From an uncultured Candidatus Saccharibacteria bacterium (GTDB lineage Bacteria; Patescibacteriota; Minisyncoccia; Phycocordibacterales; Zambryskibacteraceae), in assembly GCA_964504255.1 (NCBI GenBank), contig CAZDDU010000001.1, positions 33,843 to 97,842 of the forward strand: DNA of 64,000 nucleotides, in the 5' to 3' direction. Made by a program: the position numbers and the translations under genes. The notes below the pieces were generated by a model. It was given only the letters and a program-made list of their open reading frames with translations. It did not search any database and was not told the DNA's origin. Positions 3,992 to 62,568 of this stretch are shown here, piece by piece (the stretch's first letter is position 1; every line of letters starts with the position of its first letter).

Positions 3992-4015
3992 GGGTCTATA
4001 GTGAGCCTAGTTAGT

Positions 4016-5992
4016 CTAGAAGTCTATCTTGTATAAAATGTCTCTCCGAGTGTCTCGCCTGGGTACCGAGCCTTCGTTCCACACCTCTTCTTCGGTAAGC
4101 TCCTCTGGTATATCGAAGATGAATTCTGACGGGAGGTTCGTCTCTCTCTGGCCAAACACTGTTCTAACCTGAGCATTGGTTAAATAGAGCTTCTTCCTAG
4201 CTCTGGTGACTGCAACATAAAAGAGTCTCCTCTCCTCTTCTCTCTCCTCGGCGGTGATGTTCTCTCTAGTGATCTTGTTGTGGGGGAAGAGTCCGTCTTC
4301 GAGTCCCGAGATGAAGACGACGTTGAACTCGAGTCCCTTAGATGCGTGAATGGTCATAAGCCTGACTCCACTCTTATTTTCTTTTTCATTTTTCTTCCTG
4401 TCTAAATCATCCTGGTCACTTTGGAGTGCAGCGTCCTTGAGGAAATTCTCTATACCCTCGCCTTGCGGCAGGTGGTCATAGCGAGAGGCGAAGGCCACTA
4501 GCTCGAAGGCGTTCTCTAGTCTATCTTGGTCCTCGTCTCTACCTCCACGCCACTCGGCTTCTAGTCCTGTGCACTTAATAATGTGATTTATCACCTCGCT
4601 CGGCCTCAGCTCATTAGCCTTCTCCCCTATGTCGACGAGCAACTTTCTAAAGTCAGCTATCTTCACTCTTGTGCCTGCTGGCAGAGTGGTCTCGTCTCCG
4701 GTAAATATCTTTACCACTGTAGTCTTGCCGATACCTCGAGTAGGAGTGTTGATGATCCTCTTCACATCGGCAAGTGCGCCGGGGTTAAGTCCGGCCCTGA
4801 GATAAGAGATGATGTCCTTCACCTCGCGCCTCTCGAAGAAGCGTGTGCCGAGTAGTTGGTATGGTACTTGGTGTCGGAGAAATGCTTCTTCGAGAACTCT
4901 TGATTGGAAGTTTGCCCTATAAAGTACTGCAATCTCTTCGGTATTTTCTCCACTAGCAATCAAACTCTTAGCCTTTGTAGCGATGAACTCAGCTTCAGAG
5001 ATCTCGTCGAAGGTTGAAAGTAAACTTATCTTCTCCCCTGTCTCACTCTGGGTGAAAAGATTTTTCTCCACTCTGATCTTATTCTTTTTGATGATGGTGT
5101 TAGCCGCTTCTAGAATAGTTTTGGTAGAACGATAGTTCTCCTCGAGAAGAATTATTTTTGTCTCTGGATAGTCCTTCTCGAACTTCAAAATGTTTTGGAT
5201 GTCTGCTCCTCGCCAAGAATAGATGTTTTGGTCTATGTCACCCACCACAGTGATGTTCTTCTCCTCGCTTGTTAAGAGCTTAGCGATCTCGTACTGTACT
5301 TTGTTGGTGTCCTGATACTCGTCTATATGGATATACTTCCACACATGTCGATAATGGTCTCTAACCTTCGGGTTACCACGAAGTAGGCGCACGGTCTTTA
5401 AGAGTAGGTCGTCGAAGTCGAGTGCACTGTCGCGCCTGAGGATCTTCTCGTACTCACCCCATACCGACTTAACTGTAGAGGTGAAGTGACCTCCCTCTTC
5501 GTGTGACATGTATTCTTCGGATGTGGTGTCGCGTCCCTTCTCCTTCGAGATGATGGAGAGGATACGGTCTGGTTCGTGGGTCTTGGGGTCGAAGCCGGTA
5601 TTAACCAAAGCTTCTTTGATAGCTCTTTTCGCATCGTCCTTGTCGAAGATGGTGAAGTGTCTAGAAATGCCTAGAGCTTGGCTATTTTCCTTCAATATAT
5701 GTACCCCAAGGGAGTGGAAGGTGGATACAAAGGGTTTCTCGGTCATTGTGACTGGGCGACTGAGTTCTTTGTCTTCAAGGAGCATCTTCTCTACCCTCTC
5801 TCGCATCTCTTTGGCAGCCTTGTTGGTGAAGGTAATGGCCAAAATGGATGATGGAGCCACTCCGTGCTTCACCAAATTCCGTATTCTCTCGGCGATTGTC
5901 TTGGTTTTGCCCGCCCCGGCACCTGCGAGTATAAGAAGGGGCCCCTCTAGGGTATCCACCGCCTGCTGTTGTCGTTCGTTTAGAGTTGCCAT
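4016..5992 (-). CDS. uvrD: ATP-dependent DNA helicase UvrD/PcrA family
   Basis: MATLNERQQQAV...LAGAGAGKTKT Walker A, IHIDEYQDTN, UvrD motifs; start taken at internal Met15 of track ORF. Confidence 0.9.
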   Translation of the reverse strand: MATLNERQQQAVDTLEGPLLILAGAGAGKTKTIAERIRNLVKHGVAPSSILAITFTNKAAKEMRERVEKMLLEDKELSRPVTMTEKPFVSTFHSLGVHILKENSQALGISRHFTIFDKDDAKRAIKEALVNTGFDPKTHEPDRILSIISKEKGRDTTSEEYMSHEEGGHFTSTVKSVWGEYEKILRRDSALDFDDLLLKTVRLLRGNPKVRDHYRHVWKYIHIDEYQDTNKVQYEIAKLLTSEEKNITVVGDIDQNIYSWRGADIQNILKFEKDYPETKIILLEENYRSTKTILEAANTIIKKNKIRVEKNLFTQSETGEKISLLSTFDEISEAEFIATKAKSLIASGENTEEIAVLYRANFQSRVLEEAFLRHQVPYQLLGTRFFERREVKDIISYLRAGLNPGALADVKRIINTPTRGIGKTTVVKIFTGDETTLPAGTRVKIADFRKLLVDIGEKANELRPSEVINHIIKCTGLEAEWRGGRDEDQDRLENAFELVAFASRYDHLPQGEGIENFLKDAALQSDQDDLDRKKNEKENKSGVRLMTIHASKGLEFNVVFISGLEDGLFPHNKITRENITAEEREEERRLFYVAVTRARKKLYLTNAQVRTVFGQRETNLPSEFIFDIPEELTEEEVWNEGSVPRRDTRRDILYKIDF

Positions 5993-20618: not shown

Positions 20619-20666
20619 GCTGCTTGTAGTGAGACTGTTTACACTGAGCGTAGTCGAAGGGTCGAA

Positions 20667-22142
20667 CTACTCTACTTTGTATTTATCCTTAATCTCCTCC
20701 ACTTCCTTATCGTCTTCTGATTCATTTTTCTTTCTTGCAACCTTTCCCAACTTTATCAATTCCTCTTGGTCTAGCTTGTAGAGATCACTCACGCGTTTCT
20801 CCAGATGTGATCTTTCATTTAACTTTGGATCCTCGAGCACTTCGGAGAGCAATATTTCTAAAATGCTTCCAATGTGTGGTCCTGCGTTCGAATTAGTAAG
20901 ACTCATAATGTCTCCCCCATTCATGTTTAGTTGTTTGACAGAGATAGGGTCGCGCATTACCTGCTCTATCATCGAGTGATACTTACGCAGTCTGTAGGTT
21001 ACAGCCTTCGGTCTGCCCATGCCGGTTCTATCAGACGATCTTACATTCATAAGGTCCCAGATGAGATCTGGACCCACATTTCTTACAATTCTTCTCACGG
21101 CAGAGAGCGAAATGGTCTCCGTTTCAGAGAAAAACATGTGCCATCTTACTAGTTTGACCACCTTCTCTATCACCTCTCTTGGAAACTTTAAATCAGTGAG
21201 AATGTTTCTAGCAATTTTTGCTCCAACCACCTCATGTCCGTAGAAGGTCCATTGTCCATTAATCATCTTCCTTGTATGAGGCTTGGCGATGTCGTGTAGA
21301 AGCACCGCGATTCGTACATGAAGCGGGAATTTTTTCTCAGCAGCATAATCAAGAGAACGTATAAGATGTTCCCAGACTGTATAAATGTGCGCCTTGTTCT
21401 GCTCTACTCCGACTCCCTTCTCCAGTTCTGGAGAAATATATTTAAGAAGGCCAAGTTGTGTAGCAAGGCCAAGAGCAACAGAAGGACTGTCTGACATCAC
21501 AATCTTTATGAACTCGTCTCTGATACGCTCTTTGGATATTTGAGAGAGTAGATCCTTCTTCTCTGAGATGGCCTTAACCGTCTCAGACTCGATGGCGAAG
21601 TTTAGCTCGGCTGCGAGCCTGATCGCTCGTAGAATCCTCAGTGCGTCCTCACCAAATCTTTCATTCGGGTCCCCTACTGTTCTAATTAATTTATTTTTCA
21701 GGTCTTCTCTACCGTCGAATAGATCTATCACTTCCCCACCCCTTAGGTCATAAGCAAGAGCATTAATGGTGAAGTCTCTCCTCTTGAGATCTTCGTCTAA
21801 TGTTTTAGACCACTTAACTTCATCAGGACGTCTGAAGTCAGAGTAAGCTCCTTCTGTACGAAACGGAGTAACTTCAATCACCCGAAGGTTTTCATTTGGT
21901 GGGTTGTCATTCACTATCCCCACAGTGCCGTAGTCATTCTCGTAGAAGGTGTGTTCAAAGAGTGGAGTAATCTCATCTGGCGTGGCCACGGTAGTAAGAT
22001 CCCAATCTTTGGGCTCTTTACTAAGCAAGATGTCTCTAACGCATCCGCCAACCAAGTAATTCTCAAACTTGGTACTACTTAAAACAGATGAGACTCGACT
22101 CACCTCCTCCGGAATCTCTAATTTTTCTTTAATTCTAGCCAT
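20667..22142 (-). CDS. cca: CCA-adding tRNA nucleotidyltransferase with HD domain
   Basis: GGCVRD nucleotidyltransferase motif, HD motif LLHDIAKP; start at Met20 of track ORF to avoid overlap with tRNA-Arg. Confidence 0.85.
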   Translation of the reverse strand: MARIKEKLEIPEEVSRVSSVLSSTKFENYLVGGCVRDILLSKEPKDWDLTTVATPDEITPLFEHTFYENDYGTVGIVNDNPPNENLRVIEVTPFRTEGAYSDFRRPDEVKWSKTLDEDLKRRDFTINALAYDLRGGEVIDLFDGREDLKNKLIRTVGDPNERFGEDALRILRAIRLAAELNFAIESETVKAISEKKDLLSQISKERIRDEFIKIVMSDSPSVALGLATQLGLLKYISPELEKGVGVEQNKAHIYTVWEHLIRSLDYAAEKKFPLHVRIAVLLHDIAKPHTRKMINGQWTFYGHEVVGAKIARNILTDLKFPREVIEKVVKLVRWHMFFSETETISLSAVRRIVRNVGPDLIWDLMNVRSSDRTGMGRPKAVTYRLRKYHSMIEQVMRDPISVKQLNMNGGDIMSLTNSNAGPHIGSILEILLSEVLEDPKLNERSHLEKRVSDLYKLDQEELIKLGKVARKKNESEDDKEVEEIKDKYKVE

Positions 22143-22149
22143 TTCACTT

Positions 22150-22177
22150 GGTTTACACTGAGTTTGTTGAAGTGTGC
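22150..22177. repeat. 28-bp direct repeat copy 1 (GGTTTACACTGAGTTTGTTGAAGTGTGC), 3' trailer of tRNA-Arg
   Basis: Identical 28-mer also at 22270-22297; 12-nt core TTTACACTGAG also at about 20633. Confidence 0.8.
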
Positions 22178-22246: not shown

Positions 22247-22269
22247 AGTATTAGTATTCTATCAGGTTT

Positions 22270-22297
22270 GGTTTACACTGAGTTTGTTGAAGTGTGC
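22270..22297. repeat. 28-bp direct repeat copy 2, 3' trailer of tRNA-Gly(GCC)
   Basis: Identical to 22150-22177. Confidence 0.8.
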
Positions 22298-25070: not shown

Positions 25071-25538
25071 ATGAAGTTTATTGTTCCAATGGTCATTTTG
25101 GTTCTGGTCGTCCTCGGTGGGTGGCTATACATGAGAGGGTCAGAGTCCGCTCCTCAGGTAGTAGAGCAGGAGACTACGACAGTAAGTAATGGTGTTCAGG
25201 TCACAAAGACGGACACATCTAAGTCTGGTTCCATGCTCCCAGCTGGCTTCCCAAAGGATATTCCAGTAGAAGAGGCTAACATTAAAGATAGTTACAAGGC
25301 TTATTATGAGAAGGTTAAGGCCACCCAGTACACTGTTAGCTATGTTTCCAAGTTGAGTAAGGACACACTTTGGAAGGCCTACTCCGATTTTATGAACAGT
25401 GATAAGTACAGCGTCGACCCATCATCTTCTAGGAGCTTGGGCCAAATATCCGGGGTTATGGGTGACGATTCTATGTCGGTGGTAATAACAGCTAATGCTG
25501 GGGTGACTCTAGTGCAGATTGTTTACCTAGACAGATGA
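25071..25538 (+). CDS. N-terminally anchored hypothetical protein (paralogue of the next gene)
   Basis: TM helix; LPAGFPKDIP motif shared with ISGFPEDLIN in the downstream gene. Confidence 0.5.
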   Translation: MKFIVPMVILVLVVLGGWLYMRGSESAPQVVEQETTTVSNGVQVTKTDTSKSGSMLPAGFPKDIPVEEANIKDSYKAYYEKVKATQYTVSYVSKLSKDTLWKAYSDFMNSDKYSVDPSSSRSLGQISGVMGDDSMSVVITANAGVTLVQIVYLDR

Positions 25539-25560
25539 TTCGACAAGCTCACCATAAATA

Positions 25561-26055
25561 ATGCCGAGAAACAGTAATTTAGGCCCACTTTTGATAATTC
25601 TTGTATTTTTGGTGGCTCTAGTTGGGGGTTACGCTATTAGAGAGGATAGGTGGCCGGGCTTGCCTTGGAGCCTCGGACTTGCTCCAACAAAGTTTACTCT
25701 TGAGGCCGAGGCACCAAGTGGTCAGTTGATAAGCGGCTTCCCTGAAGATTTGATAAACATGACCAAGGACGCTCGTATTGAGCAGTCAGCTATGTACTTT
25801 CTGGCTGAGGAAGTGGGTAAGTCGGAGGTTCTAACCACTACATACAAAACGAAGGCTTCTATCTCAGAGCTTTTTGCTGCATATGTAGAGAAGCTCACCG
25901 GAGAGGGCTATACAATGACGAGAACTAAGTCAGGTAGTGGTGAGTCAGAGATAGAGGCCTTCAACTCTGTTTATTCGATTTCTATAAATATTTCTGTTTC
26001 GAGTAGATTGGAGAAGGAGGTTAGAGTTGATGTGAGAAAGGCCGTGGTACAATAA
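25561..26055 (+). CDS. N-terminally anchored hypothetical protein (paralogue of the previous gene)
   Basis: TM helix, shared GFP[KE]D[IL] motif and similar length. Confidence 0.5.
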   Translation: MPRNSNLGPLLIILVFLVALVGGYAIREDRWPGLPWSLGLAPTKFTLEAEAPSGQLISGFPEDLINMTKDARIEQSAMYFLAEEVGKSEVLTTTYKTKASISELFAAYVEKLTGEGYTMTRTKSGSGESEIEAFNSVYSISINISVSSRLEKEVRVDVRKAVVQ

Positions 26056-29750: not shown

Positions 29751-31493
29751 ATGCACATTGATGAGACAGAACTTAAACGTCTGGTACTTGATTCTGGTCT
29801 AGTATCAAAGAAGGATATTGAAGATGCTGCGAAGTTCTCTGAGGAGAATGGTCAGAGTCTTGGTAAGGTCTTGGTAAGTAGGGGAGTAATTACCGAAGAC
29901 GAGTTTAGACGTCTCCAGAGTTATATCTTGGGTATCCCGTTTGTTGATCTGAAGAACCAGAAGTTAAATATCGAGGTACTCTCTCTCATTCCAGAGCCTA
30001 TTGCCCGTAACCACAACATCGTCGCCTTCAAGAAGAGCGCGACTAATTTGGAAGTGGCCATGCTCGACATCGAGGACATGACGGCAATTGATTTCGTAAG
30101 GAAGAAGGTTGGACTAAAGATCGACGCCAGACTCACAGATAATGAGTCTATGAAGTGGGCCCTAGTGTCTTATCAGAAGAGTTTGAAGGATGAATTCGGT
30201 TCAGTTATCGAGAAGGTAGCTGGTTCCATCAAGGCCGGCAATGCCAAGGGGGATGAGAATGCTTCGGACCTAAAGAAACTAGCCGAAGATGTGCCCGTTG
30301 TCAGGGTGGTGGATACACTTCTCAAGCACGCTATTGTACAGGATGCGTCCGACATTCATATAGAGCCGGAGGACGAGCAAGTACTTGTGCGTTACCGCAT
30401 AGACGGCATCCTCCATGATTCGATGGTTTTGCCCAAGAACACCGCTGCTGGTATTACCGCCCGTATCAAGGTACTTTCGAGCCTTAAGCTCGATGAGAAG
30501 CGCGTGCCTCAAGACGGTCGCTTCAAGATTGATCTCGATGGGGAGAAGGTCTCCTTCCGTGTCTCTACACTGCCTACTTACTATGGAGAGAAGACTGTTA
30601 TGAGAATTTTGCGCGAGAATGCTTCGGGCTTTACTCTAGAGTCTCTTGGTTTTCACGGTTATGGTCTTGAGACGATCCACAACGCGATCAAGCTCACAAC
30701 CGGAATGATCCTTACCACCGGACCAACAGGAAGCGGTAAGACCACCACTCTCTACACAGTGCTCGACTTGGTGAACACTCCAGATGTAAACATCTCTACT
30801 ATCGAAGACCCTATCGAATACCAAATGAAAAGGGTGAATCAAACTCAAGTAAGACCCGAGATCGGCTTCACTTTCGCACAGGGTATGCGTACACTTGTGC
30901 GTCAGGACCCTGACATTATCATGGTTGGCGAGATTCGCGACAATGAGACGGCCGCTCTTGCGGTTAATGCGGCTCTTACAGGCCACCTTGTGCTCTCAAC
31001 CCTTCATACCAACTCTGCTGCTGGAGCGATACCAAGACTGCTTGATATGCAGGTTGAGCCCTTTCTACTGACCTCCACACTTCAAGTCATCGTCGCTCAG
31101 AGGTTGGTGCGAAGACTCGGCCAAGGTAAGAAGAAATATAATTTAAATAAGACCGAGATAGAGTCCCTTGGGCACCTCATAGACTTGAACCGACTCCTAA
31201 CAATGCTTAAGGCAGAGAAGGTGGTTCCCAAGGATGCCGATTGGAAGGATGTGCCGTTCTACAAGCCGAATCCAGAAGACGATAACGAAGGATACCAGAG
31301 TCGTATCGGTATTCATGAGATACTCAAGGTTACTGAGCCGATCAAAGCCCTTATTTTAAAGAACGCACCAGGCAAGGAGATCGAGGAGGTGGGCAAGAAG
31401 GACGGAATGATGACCATGCTCGAAGACGGTATTTACAAGGCGGTGCTTGGTCAGACGTCTATTGAAGAGGTTCTAAGAGTTATCTCAGAATAG
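29751..31493 (+). CDS. pilB: type IV pilus assembly ATPase PilB (GspE family)
   Basis: N-terminal T2SE_N domain, Walker A GPTGSGKTTTLY, conserved His/Asp boxes. Confidence 0.9.
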   Translation: MHIDETELKRLVLDSGLVSKKDIEDAAKFSEENGQSLGKVLVSRGVITEDEFRRLQSYILGIPFVDLKNQKLNIEVLSLIPEPIARNHNIVAFKKSATNLEVAMLDIEDMTAIDFVRKKVGLKIDARLTDNESMKWALVSYQKSLKDEFGSVIEKVAGSIKAGNAKGDENASDLKKLAEDVPVVRVVDTLLKHAIVQDASDIHIEPEDEQVLVRYRIDGILHDSMVLPKNTAAGITARIKVLSSLKLDEKRVPQDGRFKIDLDGEKVSFRVSTLPTYYGEKTVMRILRENASGFTLESLGFHGYGLETIHNAIKLTTGMILTTGPTGSGKTTTLYTVLDLVNTPDVNISTIEDPIEYQMKRVNQTQVRPEIGFTFAQGMRTLVRQDPDIIMVGEIRDNETAALAVNAALTGHLVLSTLHTNSAAGAIPRLLDMQVEPFLLTSTLQVIVAQRLVRRLGQGKKKYNLNKTEIESLGHLIDLNRLLTMLKAEKVVPKDADWKDVPFYKPNPEDDNEGYQSRIGIHEILKVTEPIKALILKNAPGKEIEEVGKKDGMMTMLEDGIYKAVLGQTSIEEVLRVISE

Positions 31494-31520
31494 TTCGACA
31501 AGCTCACTATAAATAACATG
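31491..31520 (+). repeat. recurrent junction element TAGTTCGACAAGCTCACTATAAATAAC immediately before the pilC ATG
   Basis: Other copies: 25539-25563, 37245-37272(-), 52008-52041, 53489-53525, 54361-54390, 59843-59867, 62545-62571. Confidence 0.7.
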
Positions 31521-37245: not shown

Positions 37246-37272
37246 GCTATTTATAGTGAGCTTGTCGAACTA
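37245..37272 (-). repeat. junction element copy on the minus strand (TAGTTCGACAAGCTCACTATAAATAGC) before the HIT gene ATG
   Basis: Reverse complement of the plus-strand sequence; begins with the stop codon of the LTD gene. Confidence 0.7.
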
Positions 37273-45897: not shown

Positions 45898-48066
45898 ATG
45901 GAACGAGATTATCCTTTAGAGAGAGTTCGAAACTTCGGTATTATTGCGCACATCGATGCAGGCAAGACCACGACTTCAGAGCGCGTGCTCTTCTACACCG
46001 GAGCTCAACACAGTATTGGTGAGGTGCACGAAGGTGAGACTACTACTGACTGGATGGAGCAGGAGAGGGAGCGCGGTATTACTATTACTGCAGCTGCTAT
46101 TACATGTTTCTGGGCGCCAACATATCTAAGTGATGCAGATAGAAACGATGCGAAGAAGAAGTTCCGCTTCAACGTGATCGACACTCCTGGGCACATTGAC
46201 TTCACCGTGGAGGTTAAGAGAAGTCTTCGAGTGCTCGATGGCGCAGTGGTCGTCTTCGACGGCGTGGCAGGAGTAGAGCCTCAGTCTGAGACCAACTGGC
46301 GTTATGCCGAGGAAGCTCAGGTGCCTCGCATCTGCTTCATCAACAAGCTCGACCGTACAGGAGCTTCTTTCGAGCGCTCATACAAATCTATTTTAGACAG
46401 ACTTTCTAAGAAGGCGGTTCGCTTCCAGATCCCAATTGGTGAGGAGGACAAGCATGAGGGAGTTATAGACCTACTTAAGATGAAGGCGTACTTCTTCGAG
46501 GGCAACATGGGTAACAAGGTTATAGAGAAGGATATCCCAGCTGAGTACATGGCTGATGCTACCAAGTATCGTGCTGATCTTGTGGAGAGAATCGTAGAGA
46601 ACGACGAGGGTCTCATGACCGCGTACCTAGAGGGTAAGGAGATCTCTATCGAAGCACTCAAGGAGACTTTGAGAAAGGCTGTGATTGCGAACAAGATCTT
46701 CCCTGTGATGACGGGTTCTGCTCTTAAGAACAAGGGAGTACAGCTTGTACTCGATGCGGTTGTTGATTACCTACCAAGTCCACTCGACATCCCCCCAGTG
46801 AAGGGTATTAACCCAGAGACAAATGAAGAGGTACTTAGACATGCGTCTGACACAGAGCCTTTCTCTGCACTCGCCTTCAAGCTACAAGCAGACCCATTCG
46901 TTGGTCAGCTTACGTTCTTCCGCGTGTACTCAGGAACAATTGAGAGTGGTTCTTATATATACAACTCAACTACAGGCAACAAGGAGAGATTAGGACGCAT
47001 TGTTCGTCTTCAGGCCAACCAAAGAGAGGAGGTTAAGAAGGTTTTCGCAGGAGAGATTGCTGCAGCTGTAGGACTCAAGGAGGCGAAGACTTCGCACACC
47101 TTCTCTGACGAAGCAAACCCAATTATCCTCGATCAGATCACCTTCCCAGAGCCAGTTATCTCACTTCGTATCGAGCCTAAGACCAAGGCCGACCAAGAGA
47201 AGATGGGTATGGCACTTAAGCGTCTGTCAGACGAGGATCCAACATTCAGAATTAAGTCTGACTCAGAGACAGGGGAGACTGTGATCATGGGTATGGGTGA
47301 GCTACACCTCGAGATTATTGTCGACCGTATGAAGAGAGAGTTCTCAGTCGAGGCGAATGTGGGCAAGCCTCAGGTGGCATACAAAGAGACTATTACTGGA
47401 TCTGCAGAGGTGGAGAACAAGTACATCAAGCAGACAGGAGGTAAGGGTCAATACGGTCACGTTAAGATCACTATCAAACCAATTGAAGCACTCGACCCAG
47501 AGGCCAAGATTCCTAAGAATGTGCACCGTGAGGAAGGATTCGAGTTCATCGACTCTATTAAGGGAGGAGTTATTCCACAGGAGTTTATCCCAGCTGTTGA
47601 GAAGGGTATTAGAGAGGCAATGGACAGAGGTATCCTTGCAGGATTCAAGATGACAGATATTTCTGCCGAGCTCACTTATGGTTCTTACCACGATGTGGAT
47701 TCTTCGGAAATCGCATACAAGATTGCAGCCTCACAGGCGTTCCAAGAAGCAGCTAGGAAGGCGAAGCCGGTAATACTCGAGCCAATCATGAAGGTTGAGG
47801 TGGTTGTGCCAGAGAAGTTCATGGGAGATATTACTGGTAACCTCTCAAGTAAGCGCGCACAGATCGAAGCAATGGAAGACAGAAACGAACTCAAGGTCGT
47901 ACGTGCCAAGGTGCCTCTATCCGAGATGTTCGGTTATGTAACCAACCTCCGTTCAATGACCGAGGGTAGAGGATCATCAACTATGGAGTTCGACCACTAC
48001 GCTATCGTGCCTAAGAATGTCGAAGCCGATATTATTGAGAAGAGAACCGGTGCTAAGGCTGCATAA
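45898..48066 (+). CDS. fusA: translation elongation factor G
   Basis: [10 protein letters not shown]1, DTPGH; 722 aa. Confidence 0.95.
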
Positions 48067-48095
48067 ATAAAGTAAGTTAGAAAGACAAAACCTTC

Positions 48096-48124
48096 TTGAC
48101 AATCTAGGAGGTTTGTGCTATTAT
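48096..48124 (+). promoter_or_regulatory. near-consensus sigma70 promoter driving the GC-rich SPFH gene
   Basis: TTGACA - 17 nt - TATTAT; AAGGAGG SD 8 nt before the ATG at 48212. Confidence 0.6.
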
Positions 48125-48211
48125 CGAAGTAGAGTACTTTTAGTTGTAAGTTGTGTGTACATGCTTCAAATTCGTAGGTCCACGTAGTTCCCCCTCAAGG
48201 AGGAGTTTCGA

Positions 48212-49273
48212 ATGCCCGGGTTGAAGTTCGTTCTCAACGCTGTTGTCGTACTGCTCTTGGTCTACATCTCGAGCTTCGCGTTCGACCTCATGAACTACCC
48301 CGACGACTTCGCGGTCGCCGGAGGGATCGCCATCCTCGTGGTGGAGTTCCTGGTGGCGATGTACATGATCAAGAAGAACCCCTTCTCCGCGATCTCTCGC
48401 AAGGGAGCGAGCGGGAAGAAGAAGCCGACGAACAAGACGGCGGCCATCATGCTGATCGTCGGTATCGTCGGGGCAAACACGGCCTGCTATCAGGTCGTCG
48501 AGCCCGGACACGCTGGGATCAAGATCAACATGGCCGGTAGTGACCGAGGTGTCTCTGACATCACGGTCCAGACCGGACGTGTGTGGTACAACCCGGTCAA
48601 TACGCGGGTGTTCGAATACCCGACCTTCGTCCAGACAGCTGTTTGGAAGAGGGATTCGGAGCTGAACGAAGAGATCTCGTTCAACAGCAAGGAAGGAATC
48701 ACCTTCACCGCTGATCTGTCGCTTTCGTGGCAGATCCAGACTGACAAGGTGCCGAACTTCTACGTCATGTTCCGCAACGATGATGTGACGGCGTTCACGC
48801 ACGGGTTCCTTCGGAACATCGCGCGCGACGCCTTCACCGAGATCGCGCCCAGTTACACAAGCGAAGAGATCTACAGCACCAAGATGGGCGAACTCGTCAC
48901 TCGGGTCAAGGCCCGCACGGACTCGCTCATCGTCGCATACGGCGTGCATCTCCAGCAGTTCGGCTTCATCGGAGCCCCTCGCCCACCTGAGAACATCGTC
49001 AAGTCTCTCAACCTGAAGACCCAGGCGATCCAGGACGCGAGTGCGGCCGAGAACAAGCTCCGGCAGACGACTGCCGAAGCTCGGATGGCTGTTGCAAAGG
49101 CGCAGGGCGAGGCAGAGGCTAATCGCGCCCTTGCCAGCTCCCTCACCACTTCGATGCTCGAGTGGCGAAGACTGGAGATCACCGAGCAGAGCATCAAGAA
49201 GTGGGATGGGAAGTTGCCGGTCTATTCCGGTGGTACACTTCCCCTGATCCAACTGCCGACGCCGAATCGGTAA
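48212..49273 (+). CDS. SPFH/band-7 (HflC/stomatin-like) membrane protein; GC-rich
   Basis: N-terminal TM; SPFH core (ELNEEISFNSKEGITFTADLSLSWQI...) and AEARMAVAKAQGEAEANRAL coiled-coil tail; about 60% GC versus about 45% in flanks. Confidence 0.7.
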   Translation: MPGLKFVLNAVVVLLLVYISSFAFDLMNYPDDFAVAGGIAILVVEFLVAMYMIKKNPFSAISRKGASGKKKPTNKTAAIMLIVGIVGANTACYQVVEPGHAGIKINMAGSDRGVSDITVQTGRVWYNPVNTRVFEYPTFVQTAVWKRDSELNEEISFNSKEGITFTADLSLSWQIQTDKVPNFYVMFRNDDVTAFTHGFLRNIARDAFTEIAPSYTSEEIYSTKMGELVTRVKARTDSLIVAYGVHLQQFGFIGAPRPPENIVKSLNLKTQAIQDASAAENKLRQTTAEARMAVAKAQGEAEANRALASSLTTSMLEWRRLEITEQSIKKWDGKLPVYSGGTLPLIQLPTPNR

Positions 49274-49339
49274 CTAAGCCGCAAGATGTAAGGAAAAGTC
49301 GTTCGACTGCTCCACATCGAGCGGCTTTTCTGTTGTGTT

Positions 49340-49368
49340 TTGACAACTAGGGAGTTTTGCTTTAACTT
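49340..49368 (+). promoter_or_regulatory. sigma70-like promoter upstream of the cold-shock gene
   Basis: TTGACA - 16/17 nt - TTAACT/TAACTT. Confidence 0.45.
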
Positions 49369-49512
49369 ACGACACAGACTTGTAGGACGACGAGCAATCC
49401 AGCCGTCGAACGATAGGGGGCAGCAATAGTGCACATGTCTCGGAGTAGCGGACAGGCTCGCGCGGGTGCTCATGGTCACAGGGGCAACAAGCGTCGAAGC
49501 AAGAAACCGAAG

Positions 49513-49749
49513 AGCATGCCTGTGAGTCTGCTTGTCTCGGAGAGGCAGCACGGAGTGGTGAAGTGGTTCAGTGAGAGTATGGGCTACGGCTTCATCGGTC
49601 GGAAGAAGGGGACTCCCGATGTCTTCGTCCATTACTCGAGTATTCTCGGCACCGGCTTCAAGAGCCTCGCCGAAGGCAACAGGGTTGCCTTCGATGTCGA
49701 GAGGACGAAGAAGGGTCTCGCGGCTACGAATGTGAGGGTTGTGGACTAA
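49513..49749 (+). CDS. cold-shock domain protein (CspA family); GC-rich; long 5' UTR
   Basis: GVVKWFSESMGYGFI RNP1 motif, VFVHYS RNP2 motif; start chosen at internal Met (track ORF starts at 49429). Confidence 0.75.
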   Translation, partial: SMPVSLLVSERQHGVVKWFSESMGYGFIGRKKGTPDVFVHYSSILGTGFKSLAEGNRVAFDVERTKKGLAATNVRVVD

Positions 49750-49750
49750 T

Positions 49751-49777
49751 CCCGCCAAATGGCGGGTTTTTCTTTTC
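49751..49777 (+). terminator. intrinsic terminator after csp
   Basis: CCCGCCaaatGGCGGG followed by TTTTTCTTTTC. Confidence 0.7.
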
Positions 49778-49819
49778 TAGATCCTCATGTATAGTGCTTA
49801 ACAGGCCCTTATTCCGGAG

Positions 49820-50194
49820 GTGGGGATGTACACGGATGGTAGTATTGGTGGTGATGAGGAGACGGTGGGGAGGGATGCTCAACCTATCACAGCTGAGGAG
49901 TGGATCATTCTCGAGAGACTCTTCTCGAGCGATCGCACAAGGGAGGTGTTGGTGGCCCTTCGCCTGAACGACAACGATCCCGTCGAGGTGTCGGAGTTCA
50001 CTGAGATCCGCTTCACGAGGAGTGTCCTCGGGGGTATGTGTTCTGTCCTCACCCGAGAGAAGGTTGAATTAACCCTAGCTCTGCTTTACCCCAAGAAGCC
50101 CATGCGGGCTAACAAGGTCTTCTTCAAGCGAGTGGTGAGACCCAAGGTCACCGACTTCCAAATGTCTCAGATTCGAGCTGCGCCCTGTCACTAG
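49820..50194 (+). CDS. hypothetical protein, GC-rich
   Basis: 124 aa; about 55% GC; no motif recognised. Confidence 0.45.
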   Translation: MGMYTDGSIGGDEETVGRDAQPITAEEWIILERLFSSDRTREVLVALRLNDNDPVEVSEFTEIRFTRSVLGGMCSVLTREKVELTLALLYPKKPMRANKVFFKRVVRPKVTDFQMSQIRAAPCH

Positions 50195-50210
50195 ACGGGG
50201 CTTTTTCTTT
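50182..50210 (+). terminator. intrinsic terminator after hypothetical gene
   Basis: GCCCTGTCactaGACGGGGC followed by TTTTTCTTT. Confidence 0.55.
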
Positions 50211-51648: not shown

Positions 51649-52011
51649 ATGGCTAAAGCAAAAGTAACAACAAAAAAAGCTGTGAAAGCAGGAGCATCCG
51701 AGGGTGTCGGCAAGCTTCGAATCCGTGTCAGAGCTTATGAGAGCAAGATCCTTGATGTATCAGTGAAGCAAATCATCGACACTGCTCTCCGCTATGACGC
51801 AGAGATTCAGGGTCCGATACCTCTTCCAACAGAGATTAAGAAGTACACAGTGAACCGCGCTGCGTTCGTATACAAGAATGCTCGAGAACAATTCGAAATG
51901 CGAATACACAAGCGCTTAGTGGACATTGTTAATCCTTCTGGTAAGGTAATCGAGGCTCTAACAAACTTGTCTCTCCCCAGTGGAGTGAACATAGATGTGA
52001 AGATGATCTAG
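51649..52011 (+). CDS. rpsJ: 30S ribosomal protein S10 (N-terminal Lys/Ala-rich extension)
   Basis: LRIRVRAYESKILD...GPIPLPT. Confidence 0.9.
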   Translation: MAKAKVTTKKAVKAGASEGVGKLRIRVRAYESKILDVSVKQIIDTALRYDAEIQGPIPLPTEIKKYTVNRAAFVYKNAREQFEMRIHKRLVDIVNPSGKVIEALTNLSLPSGVNIDVKMI

Positions 52012-52041
52012 TTCGACAAGCTCACTACGAGTAAAAACATG
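52008..52041 (+). repeat. junction element copy (TAGTTCGACAAGCTCACTACGAGTAAAAAC) between rpsJ stop and rplC ATG
   Basis: See the copy at 31491. Confidence 0.7.
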
Positions 52042-53162: not shown

Positions 53163-53492
53163 ATGGCTGAAAAGAAAACAACAAAGAAGGAGAAGAAGGT
53201 GGTTGAGAAGACAGAAGTGTCGAAGTCTGTCATCGTCTCTCCAAGAATGACCGAGAAGGCGGTACTCTCTCAGGAGTCTAGAGGAGTCTATGTCTTCAAT
53301 GTGAAGCGTGACTCAACCAAGAAGCAGATTACCGCTTCTGTTAAGGCGGACTACAAGGTAACTCCACTTAAGGTGAGAACCTCCCAAGTCCCTTCTAAGC
53401 AGAAGTTCTCTCGCGGCAAGTGGGGTGTGAAGGGCGGCGGCAAGAAGGCGTATGTATATTTGAAGAAGGGCGATAAGATCGCAATCGCATAG
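53163..53492 (+). CDS. rplW: 50S ribosomal protein L23
   Basis: Position and composition; 109 aa. Confidence 0.85.
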   Translation: MAEKKTTKKEKKVVEKTEVSKSVIVSPRMTEKAVLSQESRGVYVFNVKRDSTKKQITASVKADYKVTPLKVRTSQVPSKQKFSRGKWGVKGGGKKAYVYLKKGDKIAIA

Positions 53493-53525
53493 TTCGACTG
53501 CGCTCACTACATGTAAACCAAAATG
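53489..53525 (+). repeat. junction element copy (TAGTTCGACTGCGCTCACTACATGTAAACC) between rplW and rplB
   Basis: See the copy at 31491. Confidence 0.65.
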
Positions 53526-54362
53526 AAACGATACAAACCAACAACCAAATCGAGGAGAAACATGACTGGAATCAACTTCCGCAAGTTGATCACGTCTACT
53601 ACTCCAGTTAAGTCACTCACTACTGGGTTCAAGAGAGGTGACGGACGCAACAACACTGGTCGTATCACTACTCGTCACAAGGGAGGTGGACACAAGAGAC
53701 GCTTCCGAGATATTGATTTCGTATTTGATAAGAAGAATGTTCCCTTCACTGTGAAGACAATTGAGTACGATCCAAACCGCTCTGGCTTTATCGGACTTGT
53801 AGCTTACAAGGATGGAGAGAGGAGATACATCTTGCTCTCAAAGAGTATGCGAGTTGGAGACACTTTTGTCGCAAGTGAGACAGCAACCATTACTCCTGGC
53901 AACAGACTCCCACTTAAGAGCATCCCAGTTGGTACTTTCGTATATAACGTAGAGCTTAAACCTCAAGGTGGTTCTAAGATCGCTCGCTCAGCTGGTAACT
54001 ATGTAGAAGTGTCTGCTAAGGATGCTGGTTATGTAGACTTGAAGATGCCATCAAGTGAGGTTCGCAAAGTTCTGGAGACTTGTTGGGCAACTATTGGTGA
54101 AGTGTCGAACGACGAGAATAGACTCGTAAACCTAGGCAAGGCAGGACGCTCAAGATGGCTTGGTATCCGCCCAACTACTCGAGGTACTGCGATGAACCCA
54201 GTAGACCACCCACACGGAGGAGGAGAGGGTAGACAGGGTCGAGGTCGCAGACGCGCTATCTCAGTCTACGGTAAGCCAACAGGCAAGGGCCAGAAGTCGA
54301 GAAGAGCAAAGAAGTACTCGAACAAGCATATTGTCAGAAGAAGAAAGGTTGGAAAGAAATAG
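53523..54362 (+). CDS. rplB: 50S ribosomal protein L2
   Basis: GRNNTGRITTRHKGGGHKR...GTAMNPVDHPHGGGEG. Confidence 0.95.
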   Translation: MKRYKPTTKSRRNMTGINFRKLITSTTPVKSLTTGFKRGDGRNNTGRITTRHKGGGHKRRFRDIDFVFDKKNVPFTVKTIEYDPNRSGFIGLVAYKDGERRYILLSKSMRVGDTFVASETATITPGNRLPLKSIPVGTFVYNVELKPQGGSKIARSAGNYVEVSAKDAGYVDLKMPSSEVRKVLETCWATIGEVSNDENRLVNLGKAGRSRWLGIRPTTRGTAMNPVDHPHGGGEGRQGRGRRRAISVYGKPTGKGQKSRRAKKYSNKHIVRRRKVGKK

Positions 54363-54395
54363 CAGGTCCGCTCACTACAAGTAAGAACCAAAAAA

Positions 54396-54419
54396 ACTCG
54401 CTCAAGGGCGAGTTTTTTG
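54396..54419 (+). terminator. intrinsic terminator (copy 1 of 3 identical hairpins)
   Basis: ACTCGCtcaaggGCGAGT followed by TTTTTTG. Confidence 0.75.
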
Positions 54420-54459
54420 TTAAGGTGGTGGGAGATACGACCTCAACCAGGAGCCCATT

Positions 54460-54843
54460 ATGTCTAAAAGGCATGGTACCGCCAGACCAGTTGGTTCTTT
54501 CCGTGATGGAGATGTTGTTAAGGGTAAAATAATCACCGTCTTTGCAACTACTCGTAATACCGATCTCGCCGAAGGTCGCGGCCAAACAATTGACCATTCA
54601 TATCATTTGAGCGCGCACGACGCGAAGACTGGAGCTCATGGTATCGATGTGATGGGATCAGATGGTAAGACCAAAGAAGTTTTGGCTCTTCAAGAAGACG
54701 AAAGCGGGAGAGTTTATCTCTTCGCCAACAACTCTTCACCGGTTACCATTAAAGAGGATCCTGAAGCACTTGCCAAACTTCGGAAAAGCGCCTTCAACAA
54801 GTTGAGTTCTAGTGAGAGGGCGGCACTGAATCTTGGTGATTAG
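54460..54843 (+). CDS. hypothetical small protein (cassette between rplB and rplJ)
   Basis: 127 aa, no motif recognised. Confidence 0.45.
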   Translation: MSKRHGTARPVGSFRDGDVVKGKIITVFATTRNTDLAEGRGQTIDHSYHLSAHDAKTGAHGIDVMGSDGKTKEVLALQEDESGRVYLFANNSSPVTIKEDPEALAKLRKSAFNKLSSSERAALNLGD

Positions 54844-54858
54844 ATCTTGTTGGTCATG

Positions 54859-54881
54859 ACTCGCTCAAGGGCGAGTTTTTT
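54859..54881 (+). terminator. intrinsic terminator (copy 2, identical hairpin)
   Basis: ACTCGCTCAAGGGCGAGTTTTTTG. Confidence 0.75.
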
Positions 54882-54895
54882 GATATATTCGACAA

Positions 54896-55384
54896 ATGAA
54901 AAAATTAGATAAAAAGGCTGTTTGGTTGTTCTTCCTTCAGTACGTTTGGAGCTTTGTTTACCTTGGAGCTTTCGTGGTCGCTATTACACTTTCTGCTCTT
55001 GATGGGGAGATTTCTGTTATGGCGGTACTTAACCTGATTGGCTGGGTTCTGCTGACCGTATTACTTGTTTCCTATTTTGTATCACATCTTGCTTACAAGT
55101 TTTATCTATACGAACTTTCGAATATTGGGTTCAAAAAGGAATCTGGAATTATTTGGAAGCAGTATGTCACCATCCCTTACGATAGAATTCAGAATGTAGA
55201 TATTTATCGAGGAGTTCTAGCAAGAATCCTTGGTCTCTCGGACCTGCAAATTCACACCGCTGGAGTTGGTGGAGTAGCGATGGGTGAAGGTAGGTTACCT
55301 GGACTCTCGATGGCCGATGCGGAAGTAATGCGAGATGAGCTAATAAACAGATCTAGACAATCAAGATCAGGTCAGGGTCTTTAA
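54896..55384 (+). CDS. bacterial PH-domain (bPH_2/YdbS-like) membrane protein
   Basis: Two TM helices then YVTIPYDRIQNVDIYRGVLARILGLSDLQIHTAG, typical of the bPH_2 fold. Confidence 0.6.
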   Translation: MKKLDKKAVWLFFLQYVWSFVYLGAFVVAITLSALDGEISVMAVLNLIGWVLLTVLLVSYFVSHLAYKFYLYELSNIGFKKESGIIWKQYVTIPYDRIQNVDIYRGVLARILGLSDLQIHTAGVGGVAMGEGRLPGLSMADAEVMRDELINRSRQSRSGQGL

Positions 55385-55391
55385 AGAAAAA

Positions 55392-55414
55392 ACTCGCTCA
55401 AGGGCGAGTTTTTT
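55392..55414 (+). terminator. intrinsic terminator (copy 3, identical hairpin)
   Basis: ACTCGCTCAAGGGCGAGTTTTTTG. Confidence 0.75.
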
Positions 55415-55450
55415 GATAGTCTCAAGGCAGACGACTCCAGGGAGGATTAA

Positions 55451-55669
55451 ATGGCGCATGGGCCTTTAGTGTTGACGATCAATCGAGATGAAGAGCGGGC
55501 GCTTAAGTTCGCAGAAGAAGTAGTAGAGCGATGTCCAGAAGTTCGCGTGAGCAAGATGATTGATTTCGGTCCACCAGAACTCTGCCATGGGATTGGTCGC
55601 TACATCTGGCCGGAAGGCAAGATCAGGAAGTTTTTGAACAAGAAGTTCAATTTGGAGCCCCCGCTGTGA
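55451..55669 (+). CDS. small hypothetical protein (72 aa) with GGGAGG SD
   Basis: SD GGGAGG 7 nt upstream; terminator AGCCCCcgctgtgaGGGGCT + TTTTTC at 55656-55679. Confidence 0.45.
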   Translation: MAHGPLVLTINRDEERALKFAEEVVERCPEVRVSKMIDFGPPELCHGIGRYIWPEGKIRKFLNKKFNLEPPL

Positions 55670-55689
55670 GGGGCTTTTTCTTATCTACA

Positions 55690-55887
55690 CATTTATACCA
55701 AGGCCCGGCCTTGGTAAGGGGAGGTTGTCAGGGTAGGCAAATTGATGTAGAGTAGTCGACAAAGGTCAAAGACAGAAGGCCCTTCGAATACCTCAGGGTA
55801 AACGATATAAGCCCTTCCGAGATCACTCTCAATCCGAGACCTTTGTGGTCGATTTTATTTGTCTAAATAACAGACAAACACAAAACA
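55690..55887 (+). promoter_or_regulatory. candidate ribosomal protein L10 leader (autoregulatory 5' UTR of rplJ-rplL)
   Basis: About 200-nt structured ORF-less region directly upstream of rplJ, begins with perfect hairpin ACCAAGGCCcgGGCCTTGGT; identity by position only. Confidence 0.35.
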
Positions 55888-56376
55888 ATGGCAATTAATA
55901 AACAAAAGAAAGGAGAGATCATAGATAAGCTCTCGAAGGCTGTCAAGGATGCAAAGTCCTTGGTCTTCGTGAACTTCCATGGACTCAAGGTATCCGACAC
56001 TACCAACCTCAGGCGCGAGCTTAGGAAGGAGGGTGTGGAGTACCAAGTATCTAAGAAGACTCTCACCAAGCGCGTACTCGATTCCGAGAAGTTTGAGGGC
56101 ACAATGCCCGAACTCGAGGGCGAGCTCGCTATGGCATGGAGTGAGGATCTCATCGCACCTGCACGAGGTGTACACACTTTCGCTAAGAAATTTCCAGAGG
56201 CTCTAAAGATCCTTGGAGGAGTCTTCGAAGGTAGGTATATGAGTAAGGCAGAGATGATGGAGATCGCTACCATACCTCCAGTTGAGGTACTTAGAGGTAA
56301 GTTTGTAAACATTATTAACTCACCAATCCAGCGCTTCGCAATAGCTCTTGGAGAGGTAGCAAAGAAGAAAAATTAA
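55888..56376 (+). CDS. rplJ: 50S ribosomal protein L10
   Basis: [45 protein letters not shown]. Confidence 0.9.
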
Positions 56377-56377
56377 A

Positions 56378-56737
56378 ATGACAAAAGAACAAATCATCGA
56401 GGCAGTTGAGAAGTTGTCAGTCCTCGAACTCAACACACTCGTAAAGGCAATTGAGGAGAAGTGGGGAGTATCAGCTACAGCGGTTGCTGCCGCTGGTCCT
56501 GCCGCTGGTCCTGCTGAGGAGGCTAAGAGTACAGCCGATGTAGAACTTACTGACGGCGGTGCAAACAAGATTGCAGTCATCAAGGTCGTGAAGGAAGTAC
56601 TAGGACTTGGTCTCAAGGAGGCTAAGGACATGGTAGACGGTGCTCCAGCAATGCTTAAGGCCGGTATGAAGAAGGAGGACGCCGACGCTCTTAAGAAGAA
56701 GATCGAGGAGGCTGGTGGAAAGGTTACTCTTAAGTAA
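56378..56737 (+). CDS. rplL: 50S ribosomal protein L7/L12
   Basis: [31 protein letters not shown]...[22 protein letters not shown]. Confidence 0.95.
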
Positions 56738-56763
56738 GTTTTCTCCAAAAGTTTCTCATCACA

Positions 56764-56790
56764 AAACTCCCCGAAAGGGGAGTTTTGTTC
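56764..56790 (+). terminator. intrinsic terminator after rplL
   Basis: AAACTCCCCgaaaGGGGAGTTT followed by TGTTC. Confidence 0.7.
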
Positions 56791-56831
56791 ATACTAGCGC
56801 TTTCGGGGGAGTGGGAGTAAAATACGCCCAC

Positions 56832-57404: not shown

Positions 57405-57455
57405 TATTTAGAAGCCCGCAAGGGCATTACTAGATAAACTGTACAGTAAGGATTT

Positions 57456-58148: not shown

Positions 58149-58184
58149 TCAGGGTATTTCGCTAGATAATACCTAGATAACAAA

Positions 58185-58209
58185 AAGAGGCTCTAAACAG
58201 CCTCTTTTT
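58185..58209 (+). terminator. intrinsic terminator
   Basis: AAGAGGCTctaaacAGCCTCTT followed by TTTTG. Confidence 0.7.
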
Positions 58210-58225
58210 GCTACTTATAAATTGC

Positions 58226-58254
58226 TTGACAAGTAGGGCGAAGTATGCTAAGGT
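58226..58254 (+). promoter_or_regulatory. sigma70-like promoter of GC-rich cassette gene A
   Basis: TTGACA - 17 nt - TAAGGT; AGGAGG SD 7 nt before the ATG at 58316. Confidence 0.5.
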
Positions 58255-58315
58255 TAATACAGTAGTTTCCCGTTCCTTCAGCAGCAAAGGCACCCAACTT
58301 CTAGGAGGCAGTCGT

Positions 58316-58951: not shown

Positions 58952-58992
58952 ACTGCACAACGCACGCTAACGCGTGCCCGCCCCACGAAAGT

Positions 58993-59019: not shown

Positions 59020-59028
59020 ATTCATACA

Positions 59029-59700: not shown

Positions 59701-59729
59701 GATCAGTTGGTGAGCCCTTCCTCGGGCTA

Positions 59730-59805: not shown

Positions 59806-59864
59806 ATTTGCCTACGTCCCGCATGCGGGATTAAGTTTTAAATAGTTCGAATACCTAACTTAAA

Positions 59865-62541: not shown

Positions 62542-62568
62542 TTTTAGTTCGATAAACTCACTACAAGT

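Follow-up and report, generated by a model that had tools for sequence, protein, structure and literature searches.

A 23-24 nt hairpin-forming sequence at the gene ends of a Patescibacteria genome is probably a dispersed repeat

Why should one short sequence recur between the stop codon of one gene and the start codon of the next, at junctions as different as pilB-pilC and rpsJ-rplC? The question arises from a 64,000-nucleotide (nt) stretch of an uncultured Candidatus Saccharibacteria bacterium of the Parcubacteria/Patescibacteria (contig CAZDDU010000001.1, positions 33,843 to 97,842; hereafter the window), in which an earlier note, made from the letters alone, had described such an element and proposed that it always held the same position relative to start codons. 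The recurring intergenic sequence of 23-27 nt was confirmed as real and non-random in the window. We consider it probable (roughly 0.6) that the motif is a miniature, hairpin-forming dispersed repeat of 23-24 nt, similar to repetitive extragenic palindromes (REPs) and small dispersed repeats (SDRs), which is tolerated at gene ends; we do not think that it was built as a translation-initiation signal.

Searching the window with the consensus TTCGACAAGCTCACTAYAARTAA and up to three mismatches returned five matches, against none in 100 dinucleotide-preserving shuffles, while a simpler mismatch-tolerant scan returned 13 sites against about three in Markov-shuffled sequence. A covariance model trained mostly on copies from other genomes (four of the window matches were also in its training set) gave nine matches with E<0.01, and variant copies at 53490, 54360, 62545 and 59843 were seen on direct reading of the window sequence; besides the nine clear copies the window has three to four degenerate ones. 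The claim of recurrence beyond chance in the earlier note was therefore upheld, as were its sites at 25539, 31491, 37245 (minus strand), 52008, 53489, 54361, 62545 and 59843; the fragment that it placed at 54886 (TTCGACAAATG) and the degenerate copy that it saw after clpP at 18598 were not accepted. Five copies were added to its list: a composite at 20669(-), a partial copy at 4018(-), copies at 22176(-) and 22296(-), and a weak one at 55778. This amounts to 9-13 copies per 64 kb (Table 1), none of which lies within an open reading frame (ORF) except for the stop codon that the two have in common, and every one is co-oriented with the neighbouring gene or tRNA. The gene names given earlier for the junctions agreed with the Pfam labels of the flanking genes (T2SSE and T2SSF for pilB and pilC, LTD, HIT, S10, L3, L23, L2, L24, L5, S19 and ClpP).

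Table 1. Copies of the element in the window, with the corresponding consensus matches (up to three mismatches) and covariance-model matches (E<0.01 where a position is given), followed by the in-frame copies in Nostocaceae loci
Position	Strand	Copy	Context	Consensus match	Covariance-model match
31491..31516	+	Canonical 23-nt copy with old stop, TAGTTCGACAAGCTCACTATAAA+TAA	TAG is the pilB (T2SSE) stop; pilC (T2SSF) ATG 31518	31494	31489; 39.5 bits, E 2e-7
37247..37272	-	Canonical copy, TAGTTCGACAAGCTCACTATAAA+TAG	TAG (37272-37270) ends the LTD-domain gene; HIT ATG 37245	37269(-)	37246-37274(-)
52009..52034	+	TAGTTCGACAAGCTCACTACGAG+TAA	TAG is the rpsJ (S10) stop; rplC ATG 52039	52012	52007
25536..25561	+	Both stem sides altered, TGATTCGACAAGCTCACCATAAATAA	TGA ends ORF 25071-25538; the ATG that follows shares the final TAA (25561) in part	25539	25534; E 9e-6
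53490..53516	+	24-nt type, spacer TGCG, TAGTTCGACTGCGCTCACTACATG+TAA	TAG is the rplW (L23) stop; rplB ATG 53523		53488
54360..54384	+	Diverged 5' loop half, TAGCAGGTCCGCTCACTACAAG+TAA	TAG is the rplB stop; then terminator hairpin 54397-54418, no gene		
62545..62568	+	Variant, TAGTTCGATAAACTCACTACAAGT	3 nt past the rplX TAA; abuts rplE ATG (62569)	62548	62543; E 3.5e-5
20623..20669	-	Composite: GTG-type copy TTCGACTACGCTCAGTGTAAACAG nested in the apical loop of a TAG/CTA element	TAG ends the CCA-adding enzyme/poly(A) polymerase gene; terminator-like hairpin next		20634-20663(-); E 8e-5
22148..22176	-	CAC/GTG stem, CAC TTCAAC AA ACTCA GTG TAAACC	Begins at the tRNA-Arg 3' end		22148-22176(-); E 0.002
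22268..22296	-	CAC/GTG stem, identical to 22148..22176	Begins at the tRNA-Gly(GCC) 3' end		22268-22296(-); E 0.002
3992..4018	-	Partial or degenerate, TAG + 10 nt + CTCACTATAG	TAG is the uvrD-like helicase stop; rRNA adenine dimethylase ATG 3991		no match
59843..59864	+	Degenerate, TAGTTCGAATACCTAACTTAAA	Directly ahead of the rpsS GTG start (59865)		no match
55778..55806	+	Possible, weak CCC/GGG-stem member, CCC TTCGAA TA CCTCA GGG TAAAC	Upstream of rplJ		13 bits, E ~1
L016 ~1351-1374		In-frame SSTSLTIK			
L034 ~2165-2188		In-frame SSTSLTIK			
L072 ~1535-1558		In-frame SSTSLTIK			
L059 1555-1578		In-frame SSTSLTIK			
L050 173-196		In-frame SSTSLTIK			

The unit reads NNN-TTCGAC-N2-4-GCTCA-N'N'N'-YAAR over its 23-24 nt. 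Three freely varying pairs and an invariant T-A make up a stem of 4 bp, which encloses a conserved loop interior with a variable apex (the spacer) and is followed by a short 3' tail. In the window genome the dominant subfamily has the stem TAG/CTA, and the copy at 25536, which reads TGA...CCA, has one pair altered on both sides. Among 59 members taken by loop consensus alone, and not chosen by the collection scan, the flanking triplets were Watson-Crick in 43-44 sequences per position compared with 18-28 in shuffles, and ten complementary triplet pairs were found (TAG/CTA, TGG/CCA, TCC/GGA, CCC/GGG, CAC/GTG, CAG/CTG, TAC/GTA, TGT/ACA, GGT/ACC and CGC/GCG). A 90-sequence alignment contained 79 double-sided stem changes against 21 in shuffles, none of 500 shuffles reached the observed value, and the signal collapsed when the partner was slid by 1-3 columns; since this alignment had been prefiltered for at least two of three pairs, we regard the 59-member test as the unbiased one. 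The covariation of the triplets shows that the element is a small hairpin with a 4-bp stem around a conserved loop. G-U and A-C mispairs were equally rare in the 90-sequence alignment, with no G-U excess of the kind that would be the signature of an RNA strand. The spacer of 2-4 nt extends to 27 nt in the composite copy, and the unspecified positions were non-random among the matches listed, most copies having G as the last spacer base and 91 of 124 having T directly after the element. The tail TATAAA is swapped for CAAG, CGAG or CATG in half of the copies.

In its placement the element is tied to what lies upstream. In 8 of about 10 TAG-type window copies the upstream ORF ends on the first triplet of the element (TAG, in one case TGA), which bears out the earlier observation that the element often provides that stop, and the old TAA usually stands directly behind the element. 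The gap before the next ATG ranges from 0 to 13 nt, so that the anchor is the upstream stop or a tRNA 3' end, and not the start codon as had been supposed. Nor is a start codon always next, because the copies at 54360 and 20669(-) precede terminator hairpins instead of genes; together with the two copies that abut tRNA 3' ends, these show that a downstream start is not required. As a stop codon TAG is ordinary here, as it is not rare in the window (29 of 80 ORFs). The junctions lack Shine-Dalgarno (SD) sequences, as the earlier note had stated: no GGAG-type motif occurs at them, and such motifs precede just 12 of the 80 window ORFs. Among the genome-collection matches listed, TAG closed an ORF of 50 codons or more in 44 of the 62 copies from Patescibacteria versus 10 of 62 from other phyla, and the three bases behind the element in the Patescibacteria copies were TAA in 47 and TAG in 6 of the approximately 64 rows listed. 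We attribute the appearance of a stop-to-start element to docking on gene 3' ends combined with the very short spacers of a Patescibacteria operon. TAG-to-ATG spacing was in frame in 30 of 48 cases in a first set, against a baseline of 29%, and in 24 of 51 in an independent metagenome set, where the in-frame signal of the 24-nt type failed to replicate (2 of 11). Most of the excess follows arithmetically, because a 23-nt insertion before natural TAA-N-ATG or TAA-N4-ATG junctions gives in-frame spacing.

Copies of the element were gained and lost on the time-scale of strains. At the sites occupied in the window, the related loci that we label L001, L002, L004 and L013, whose L2 proteins are 83-90% identical to that of the window host, have plain junctions such as TAA-ACAGAG-ATG. 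The rpsJ-rplC junction is without the element in L001, L002, L004, L008, L009, L013 and L014, and the nearest relatives (86-91% nucleotide identity) have none there or at rplW-rplB, a junction that is empty in L001-L013 and holds a different subtype in L103. At the 3' end of rplB the element is present in L008, L010 and L015 and absent from L009, L006 and L014; L008/L010 and L009/L006 have an identical L2 protein, and another identical L2 is found in L015 and L014. Alignment of filled and empty alleles at this site (AAATA[GTTCGACTCCGCTCACTGCAAGTA]AGAATC and AAATAAG-ATC, respectively) reveals a clean block of about 24 nt that splits the stop codon into TA and A and leaves the old TAA and the old spacer behind the element. 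In L009 (2925-2960) and L006 (2057-2092) the empty site contains an 11-nt stretch, TCAATTGAAAG, which with its neighbours resembles a duplicate of the last bases of rplB (TTGGAAAGAAATAA / TTGAAAGAAATCAA) and may be a repair footprint. Empty rpsH-rplF junctions read TGG-TAA-N1-7-ATG, and both rpsH-rplF and rplW-rplB carry differing subtypes in different lineages and nothing in others. At LTD-HIT, the same element is present in the distant syntenic relative L038, at 64-70% nucleotide identity. Recurrence at the same junctions, with differing spacer subtypes and empty alleles, is vertical retention mixed with repeated gain. The functional readings centred on the start codon that the earlier note had raised are not supported. 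The note itself had named absence from these junctions in related genomes as what would speak for a repeat and against a functional element, and the orthologous junctions of relatives are mostly without the motif.

The element extends far beyond this lineage. Scanning a collection with one genome per species for the pattern TAGTTCGAC-N3-4-CTCACTAYRWR gave at least 119 stretches, against our chance estimate of about 35 for the whole collection, and a metagenome scan gave at least 120. Half of the genome matches listed belong to Patescibacteria, and the others to cyanobacteria, including cultured Nostoc, Nodosilinea, Anabaena, Dolichospermum and Halotia, and to Bacteroidota, Omnitrophota, Chloroflexota, Planctomycetota, Gammaproteobacteria, Spirochaetota, Elusimicrobia and Fibrobacter, among others. 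Judged from these matches, the conserved part of the element is the same in at least ten phyla. Outside Patescibacteria the copies are intergenic or stand between heptamer tandem repeats (L021, L029, L041 and L109), a context seen in Nodosilinea and other filamentous cyanobacterial loci, and some have short duplicated flanks of variable length, such as TGTGCTAA on either side in L117. Like the composite copy of the window, copies in L020, L043 and L058 are nested within the apical loops of relatives that have other stems, and tandem copies occur in L130 and L131. In Nostocaceae a 24-nt copy is read in frame as the eight residues SSTSLTIK inside three unrelated proteins (Table 1): a large TamB-like protein, a glycosidase-like protein and, in three genera, a protein that we take from its N-terminal sequence to be ChlB (protochlorophyllide reductase subunit B). 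Twelve viral contigs carry the element as single copies alongside relatives with other stems, some with an SD sequence and then an ATG behind it, while 50,697 cultured phage genomes held no match to the element. Two loci are unusually rich in copies. An 8-kb segment of a Dehalococcoidia chromosome (L098; OZ244809.1, 1760001-1768000) has at least eight TGG/CCA-stem copies (GGATGGTTCGAC-NN-GCTCACCATGAGCGG) in both orientations, and the tail TGAGC of this subfamily can pair with GCTCA to form an alternative, stronger hairpin; a Patescibacteria-like groundwater contig from Hainich (L150, 13.9 kb) has at least six TAG/CTA junction copies, the densest case seen.

If the motif is a dispersed repeat, it would spread by insertion. 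In the alignments, new copies land just before the stop codon of a gene or in its TA, and we postulate that they do so generally. The TAG of the element would then end the upstream protein, and the old TAA would persist with the original spacer of a few nucleotides between the element and the next ATG. With a stem of TAG/CTA, either strand begins with TAG. As the genome has almost no spacer DNA, the copies that survive would be those at gene ends. The conserved loop of the hairpin and its insertion into the single-stranded apex of other hairpins suggest an enzyme acting on folded single-stranded DNA, and our working guess is a trans-acting enzyme that would recognise the folded hairpin, as HUH/RAYT-type enzymes do. 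Operon transcripts include the element, so that incidental effects on the mRNA are probable, such as a weak hairpin at the stop and a leader rich in A. In this lineage the repeat may also have acquired a secondary role at the RNA level, in coupling or processing.

Several observations weigh against this interpretation. No transposase or other mobilising gene was found among the 40 window ORFs scanned with Pfam (the 64 kb being a small part of the genome), and no terminal inverted repeats were seen. Duplication of TA fits the Patescibacteria sites only, flank duplications in other phyla being absent or of variable length. The predicted hairpin is weak, at -0.8 to -3.5 kcal/mol with z-scores of about 0, and this low stability means that something must bind the hairpin if the fold matters. 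The rpsH-rplF, rpsN-rpsH, ssb-rpsR and LTD-HIT junctions carry the element in very distant lineages with a perfectly conserved core, which could reflect selection for function. There is also a sense bias that selfish, orientation-blind insertion would not predict: all window copies are sense, as are about 53 Patescibacteria junction copies against 8-9 antisense ones, counted by a stop- and start-based classification as plain ORF-based counts are misleading owing to spurious antisense ORFs. Lastly, the pooled 23-nt type was in frame in 40 of 65 cases against about 41% expected, a possible modest excess.

A wider version of the dispersed-repeat interpretation is conceivable, and we offer it tentatively. 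The TAG/CTA copies may be one subfamily of pan-bacterial and viral nano-elements of about 24 nt, with the loop TTCGAC-N2-4-GCTCA and a free 4-bp stem, that are mobile across Patescibacteria, Cyanobacteria, Bacteroidota and Chloroflexota; in the ultra-small genomes of Patescibacteria they would serve as a portable gene-end cassette that gives housekeeping operons a stop codon and an intercistronic spacer. Constancy of sequence across phyla would then point to a widely shared mobilising enzyme, or to a universal host machine that reads the loop.

Of the four options raised in the earlier note, a miniature repeat is positively supported, and re-initiation or coupling, an RNase site and a protein operator lack positive support. 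The strongest of these competitors, which we nevertheless judge unlikely, is a selected cis-acting RNA element of Patescibacteria polycistronic mRNAs, whose stop-codon hairpin and A-rich tail would favour termination-reinitiation (translational coupling) in a genome with little SD use, or would mark an endonuclease processing or stabilisation site between cistrons and behind tRNAs, with mobility as the means by which a useful module spreads. Its mostly sense orientation in Patescibacteria would be explained, but antisense junction copies exist, as in L033, where the upstream ORF ends on the TAG of the hairpin and the next ATG overlaps the last A of the hairpin. The same ribosomal-protein junctions are occupied in very distant lineages with the core unchanged, and LTD-HIT has kept the element between flanking genes just 64-70% identical; against this, these junctions lack it in close relatives, and its presence differs between strains that share an identical L2. 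Low SD use (12 of 80 ORFs), the modest in-frame excess of the 23-nt type, members exactly at tRNA 3' ends and an RNase Y gene in the window all fit an RNA function, whereas the in-frame signal of the 24-nt type did not recur (2 of 11), the copies at 54360 and 20669(-) have no following gene, the hairpin is barely stable and no excess of G-U over A-C marks an RNA strand. In other phyla, moreover, the identical sequence is non-junctional and lies nested in repeats or inside proteins.

Readings of the element as a promoter or an operator are very improbable. A promoter could be compact and sigma-70-like (TTCGAC / TATAAAT, with leaderless or short-leader mRNAs) or of the type used by phage single-subunit RNA polymerases; the core CGAC...CTCACTATA resembles what we take to be the T7 promoter, TAATACGACTCACTATAG, TAYAAGTA resembles what we take to be the yeast mitochondrial promoter, and in some viral contigs an SD sequence and an ATG follow the element. 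The hexamers are 7-8 nt apart, whereas 16-19 nt are required, and no sigma-70-like site was called at any element, in agreement with the earlier view that it is too compact for such a promoter. Furthermore, half of the copies have the TATAAA tail replaced, the flanking triplets covary as a stem, which is not predicted for a promoter, the spacer varies between 2-4 nt and the 27 nt of the composite, and copies lie ahead of terminators and after tRNAs. The viral contigs hold single copies with different stems and not many identical ones, the cultured phages have none and cyanobacterial copies lie inside proteins; stem covariation, the variable spacer, the single viral copies and the lack of a cultured-phage match led us to reject a T7-like or mitochondrial-type promoter. 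We give as little credence to an operator at which a regulator would co-ordinate the flanked genes: the sequence is short and conserved with partly palindromic ends (TAGT...ACTA), yet it is not palindromic at the centre, the genes beside it (pilus, HIT, ribosomal proteins, helicase and tRNAs) have unrelated functions, and it recurs across many phyla as well as within genes and varies in presence between strains. Other candidates were set aside. A tRNA-like element (T-loop-like GTTCGA with D-arm-like AGCTCA) was dropped on inspection as the required pairing 53-61 is absent; as for an SD site, the element contains no GGAG, GAGG or AGGA, the host 16S 3' end lying outside the window; and the terminator scan called separate hairpins at 54391-54418 and 54858-54877 and no element. 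Rfam recognised six tRNAs as the sole families in the window, and a permissive scan around 52009 gave chance-level matches only. A miniature inverted-repeat transposable element, with terminal inverted repeats, a fixed target duplication and a length of 50-500 bp, does not match a unit of 23-24 nt that has no such repeats and a TA duplication at stop-codon sites alone.

Other features of the window concern the genes around these copies. A 22-nt terminator hairpin, CTCGCTCAAGGGCGAGTTTTTT, occurs three times (54397-54418, 54860-54881 and 55393-55414; 463 and 533 nt apart) and brackets the ORFs 54460-54843 (no Pfam match) and 54896-55384 (bacterial PH domain); as the closest relatives (L006-L012) are without window positions 54423-55386, this is an insertion or duplication of about 960 bp bounded by the repeated terminator. 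The S10 operon is split between rplB and rpsS (54400-59860) by rplJ-rplL, a mechanosensitive-channel-like gene and several unknown ORFs, an interruption that is a clade feature and not a recent insertion because it is conserved in related Parcubacteria loci (L001, L002, L004 and L013). G+C is 0.55-0.57 versus about 0.45 at 48000-50200 and 58000-60000, which hold an SPFH/Band 7 gene, Pfam-less ORFs and long ORFs overlapping on both strands; these segments are possibly foreign DNA. A cluster of six tRNAs (22174-22806) adjoins the gene of the CCA-adding enzyme/poly(A) polymerase family (20667-22199). Five of the six have no encoded CCA end, tRNA-Gly(TCC) alone having one, and two bear an identical 26-nt hairpin-repeat trailer. 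The L3 gene (52039-52473) encodes 144 residues and matches the central part of the Pfam model only; L3 is also short in the nearest relatives (L001, L008, L013 and L014) and has 179-195 residues in more distant ones.

What makes the locus worth attention is, unexpectedly, a shared 24-nt sequence that rewrites the stops of ribosomal-protein operons and not a translation signal. Short hairpin repeats such as REPs are thought to be specific to a species or genus, so that finding the same conserved part in viral contigs and in at least ten phyla makes one ask what copies the element. It illustrates how inserted DNA can persist in genomes with almost no non-coding space: with its own stop codon in a palindromic stem, the element can sit exactly on a gene end in either orientation. 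Copies rewrite the stop codons and intercistronic spacing of ribosomal-protein operons and add eight residues to proteins such as ChlB, and they can mislead gene callers, programs that find non-SD ribosome-binding motifs and alignment at strain level. Should a role in coupling or RNA processing prove true, the element would add a new kind of punctuation to the operons of organisms in which gene expression has hardly been studied.

Among known systems the nearest are the REPs, whose mobility depends on RAYT tyrosine transposases (Di Nocera et al. 2013, PMC3733652; Bertels and Rainey 2011, PMC3116915). REPs with their BIME and REPIN arrangements and the element are all short (20-40 nt), high-copy, hairpin-forming repeats (PMC3733652, PMC3116915). 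Both kinds are found chiefly right behind coding regions, where the adjacent genes are co-directional, and transcription of both is probable; both have subfamilies defined by complementary stem changes, and both have copies inside genes. REP stems, however, are 6-13 bp long with loops of 2-3 nt, whereas the stem here is 4 bp and the conserved part is the loop of 13-15 nt; REPs are species- or genus-specific, whereas this loop is constant across phyla. The family as a whole has no unpaired GTAG (or CGTC) tag, as TGG/CCA, CCC/GGG and TCC/GGA stems occur without it, and the RTAG ahead of the hairpin on the reverse strand is paired because the subfamily stem is TAG/CTA. Unlike REPINs, the element forms no inverted doublets, its window copies being singletons and only tandem or nested copies being seen elsewhere; no RAYT gene was seen among the 40 window ORFs scanned with Pfam, and the stop codon is part of the stem. 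Liang, Rudd and Deutscher are said to have found in 2015 that the translation of an E. coli gene is affected by REPs lying no more than about 15 nt from its stop codon.

Neither strand of the two conserved halves of the element was present in the supplements of PMC3733652. The sequence strings of the element were absent from the open-access literature except as unrelated primers, and we found neither its cross-phylum spread nor its stop-codon docking in Patescibacteria described in the literature searched. Rickettsia palindromic elements insert in frame into protein genes, and the Correia elements of Neisseria duplicate a TA target and alter the expression of neighbouring genes. The former are matched here by the insertion of SSTSLTIK, but both families measure 100-150 bp, have terminal inverted repeats and are restricted to a single genus each. 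Elhai and colleagues reportedly described in 2008 the families SDR1-8 of Nostoc and its relatives, dispersed repeats of 21-27 nt that are mobile on an evolutionary time-scale, nest in one another, occur in a context of heptamer tandem repeats and within genes, and are said to show compensatory stem changes. Judged by that description and not by the SDR1-8 sequences, the element agrees in size, nesting, heptamer context, intragenic copies and compensatory changes, and like SDRs it differs in presence and absence between relatives. To our knowledge, docking on stop codons is not part of the 2008 description. That work is cited in PMC5861425 and PMC4390886, and PMC5861425 reports SDRs as confined to Nostocaceae, whereas the element occurs in at least ten phyla and half of its matches listed are from Patescibacteria. 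In having a conserved sequence between a stop and a nearby restart codon, at genes without an SD sequence, the element also resembles bacterial translational coupling and the termination upstream ribosomal binding site (TURBS) of calicivirus termination-reinitiation; TURBS, however, lies upstream of the stop and pairs with rRNA, whereas the element also occurs away from any restart codon.

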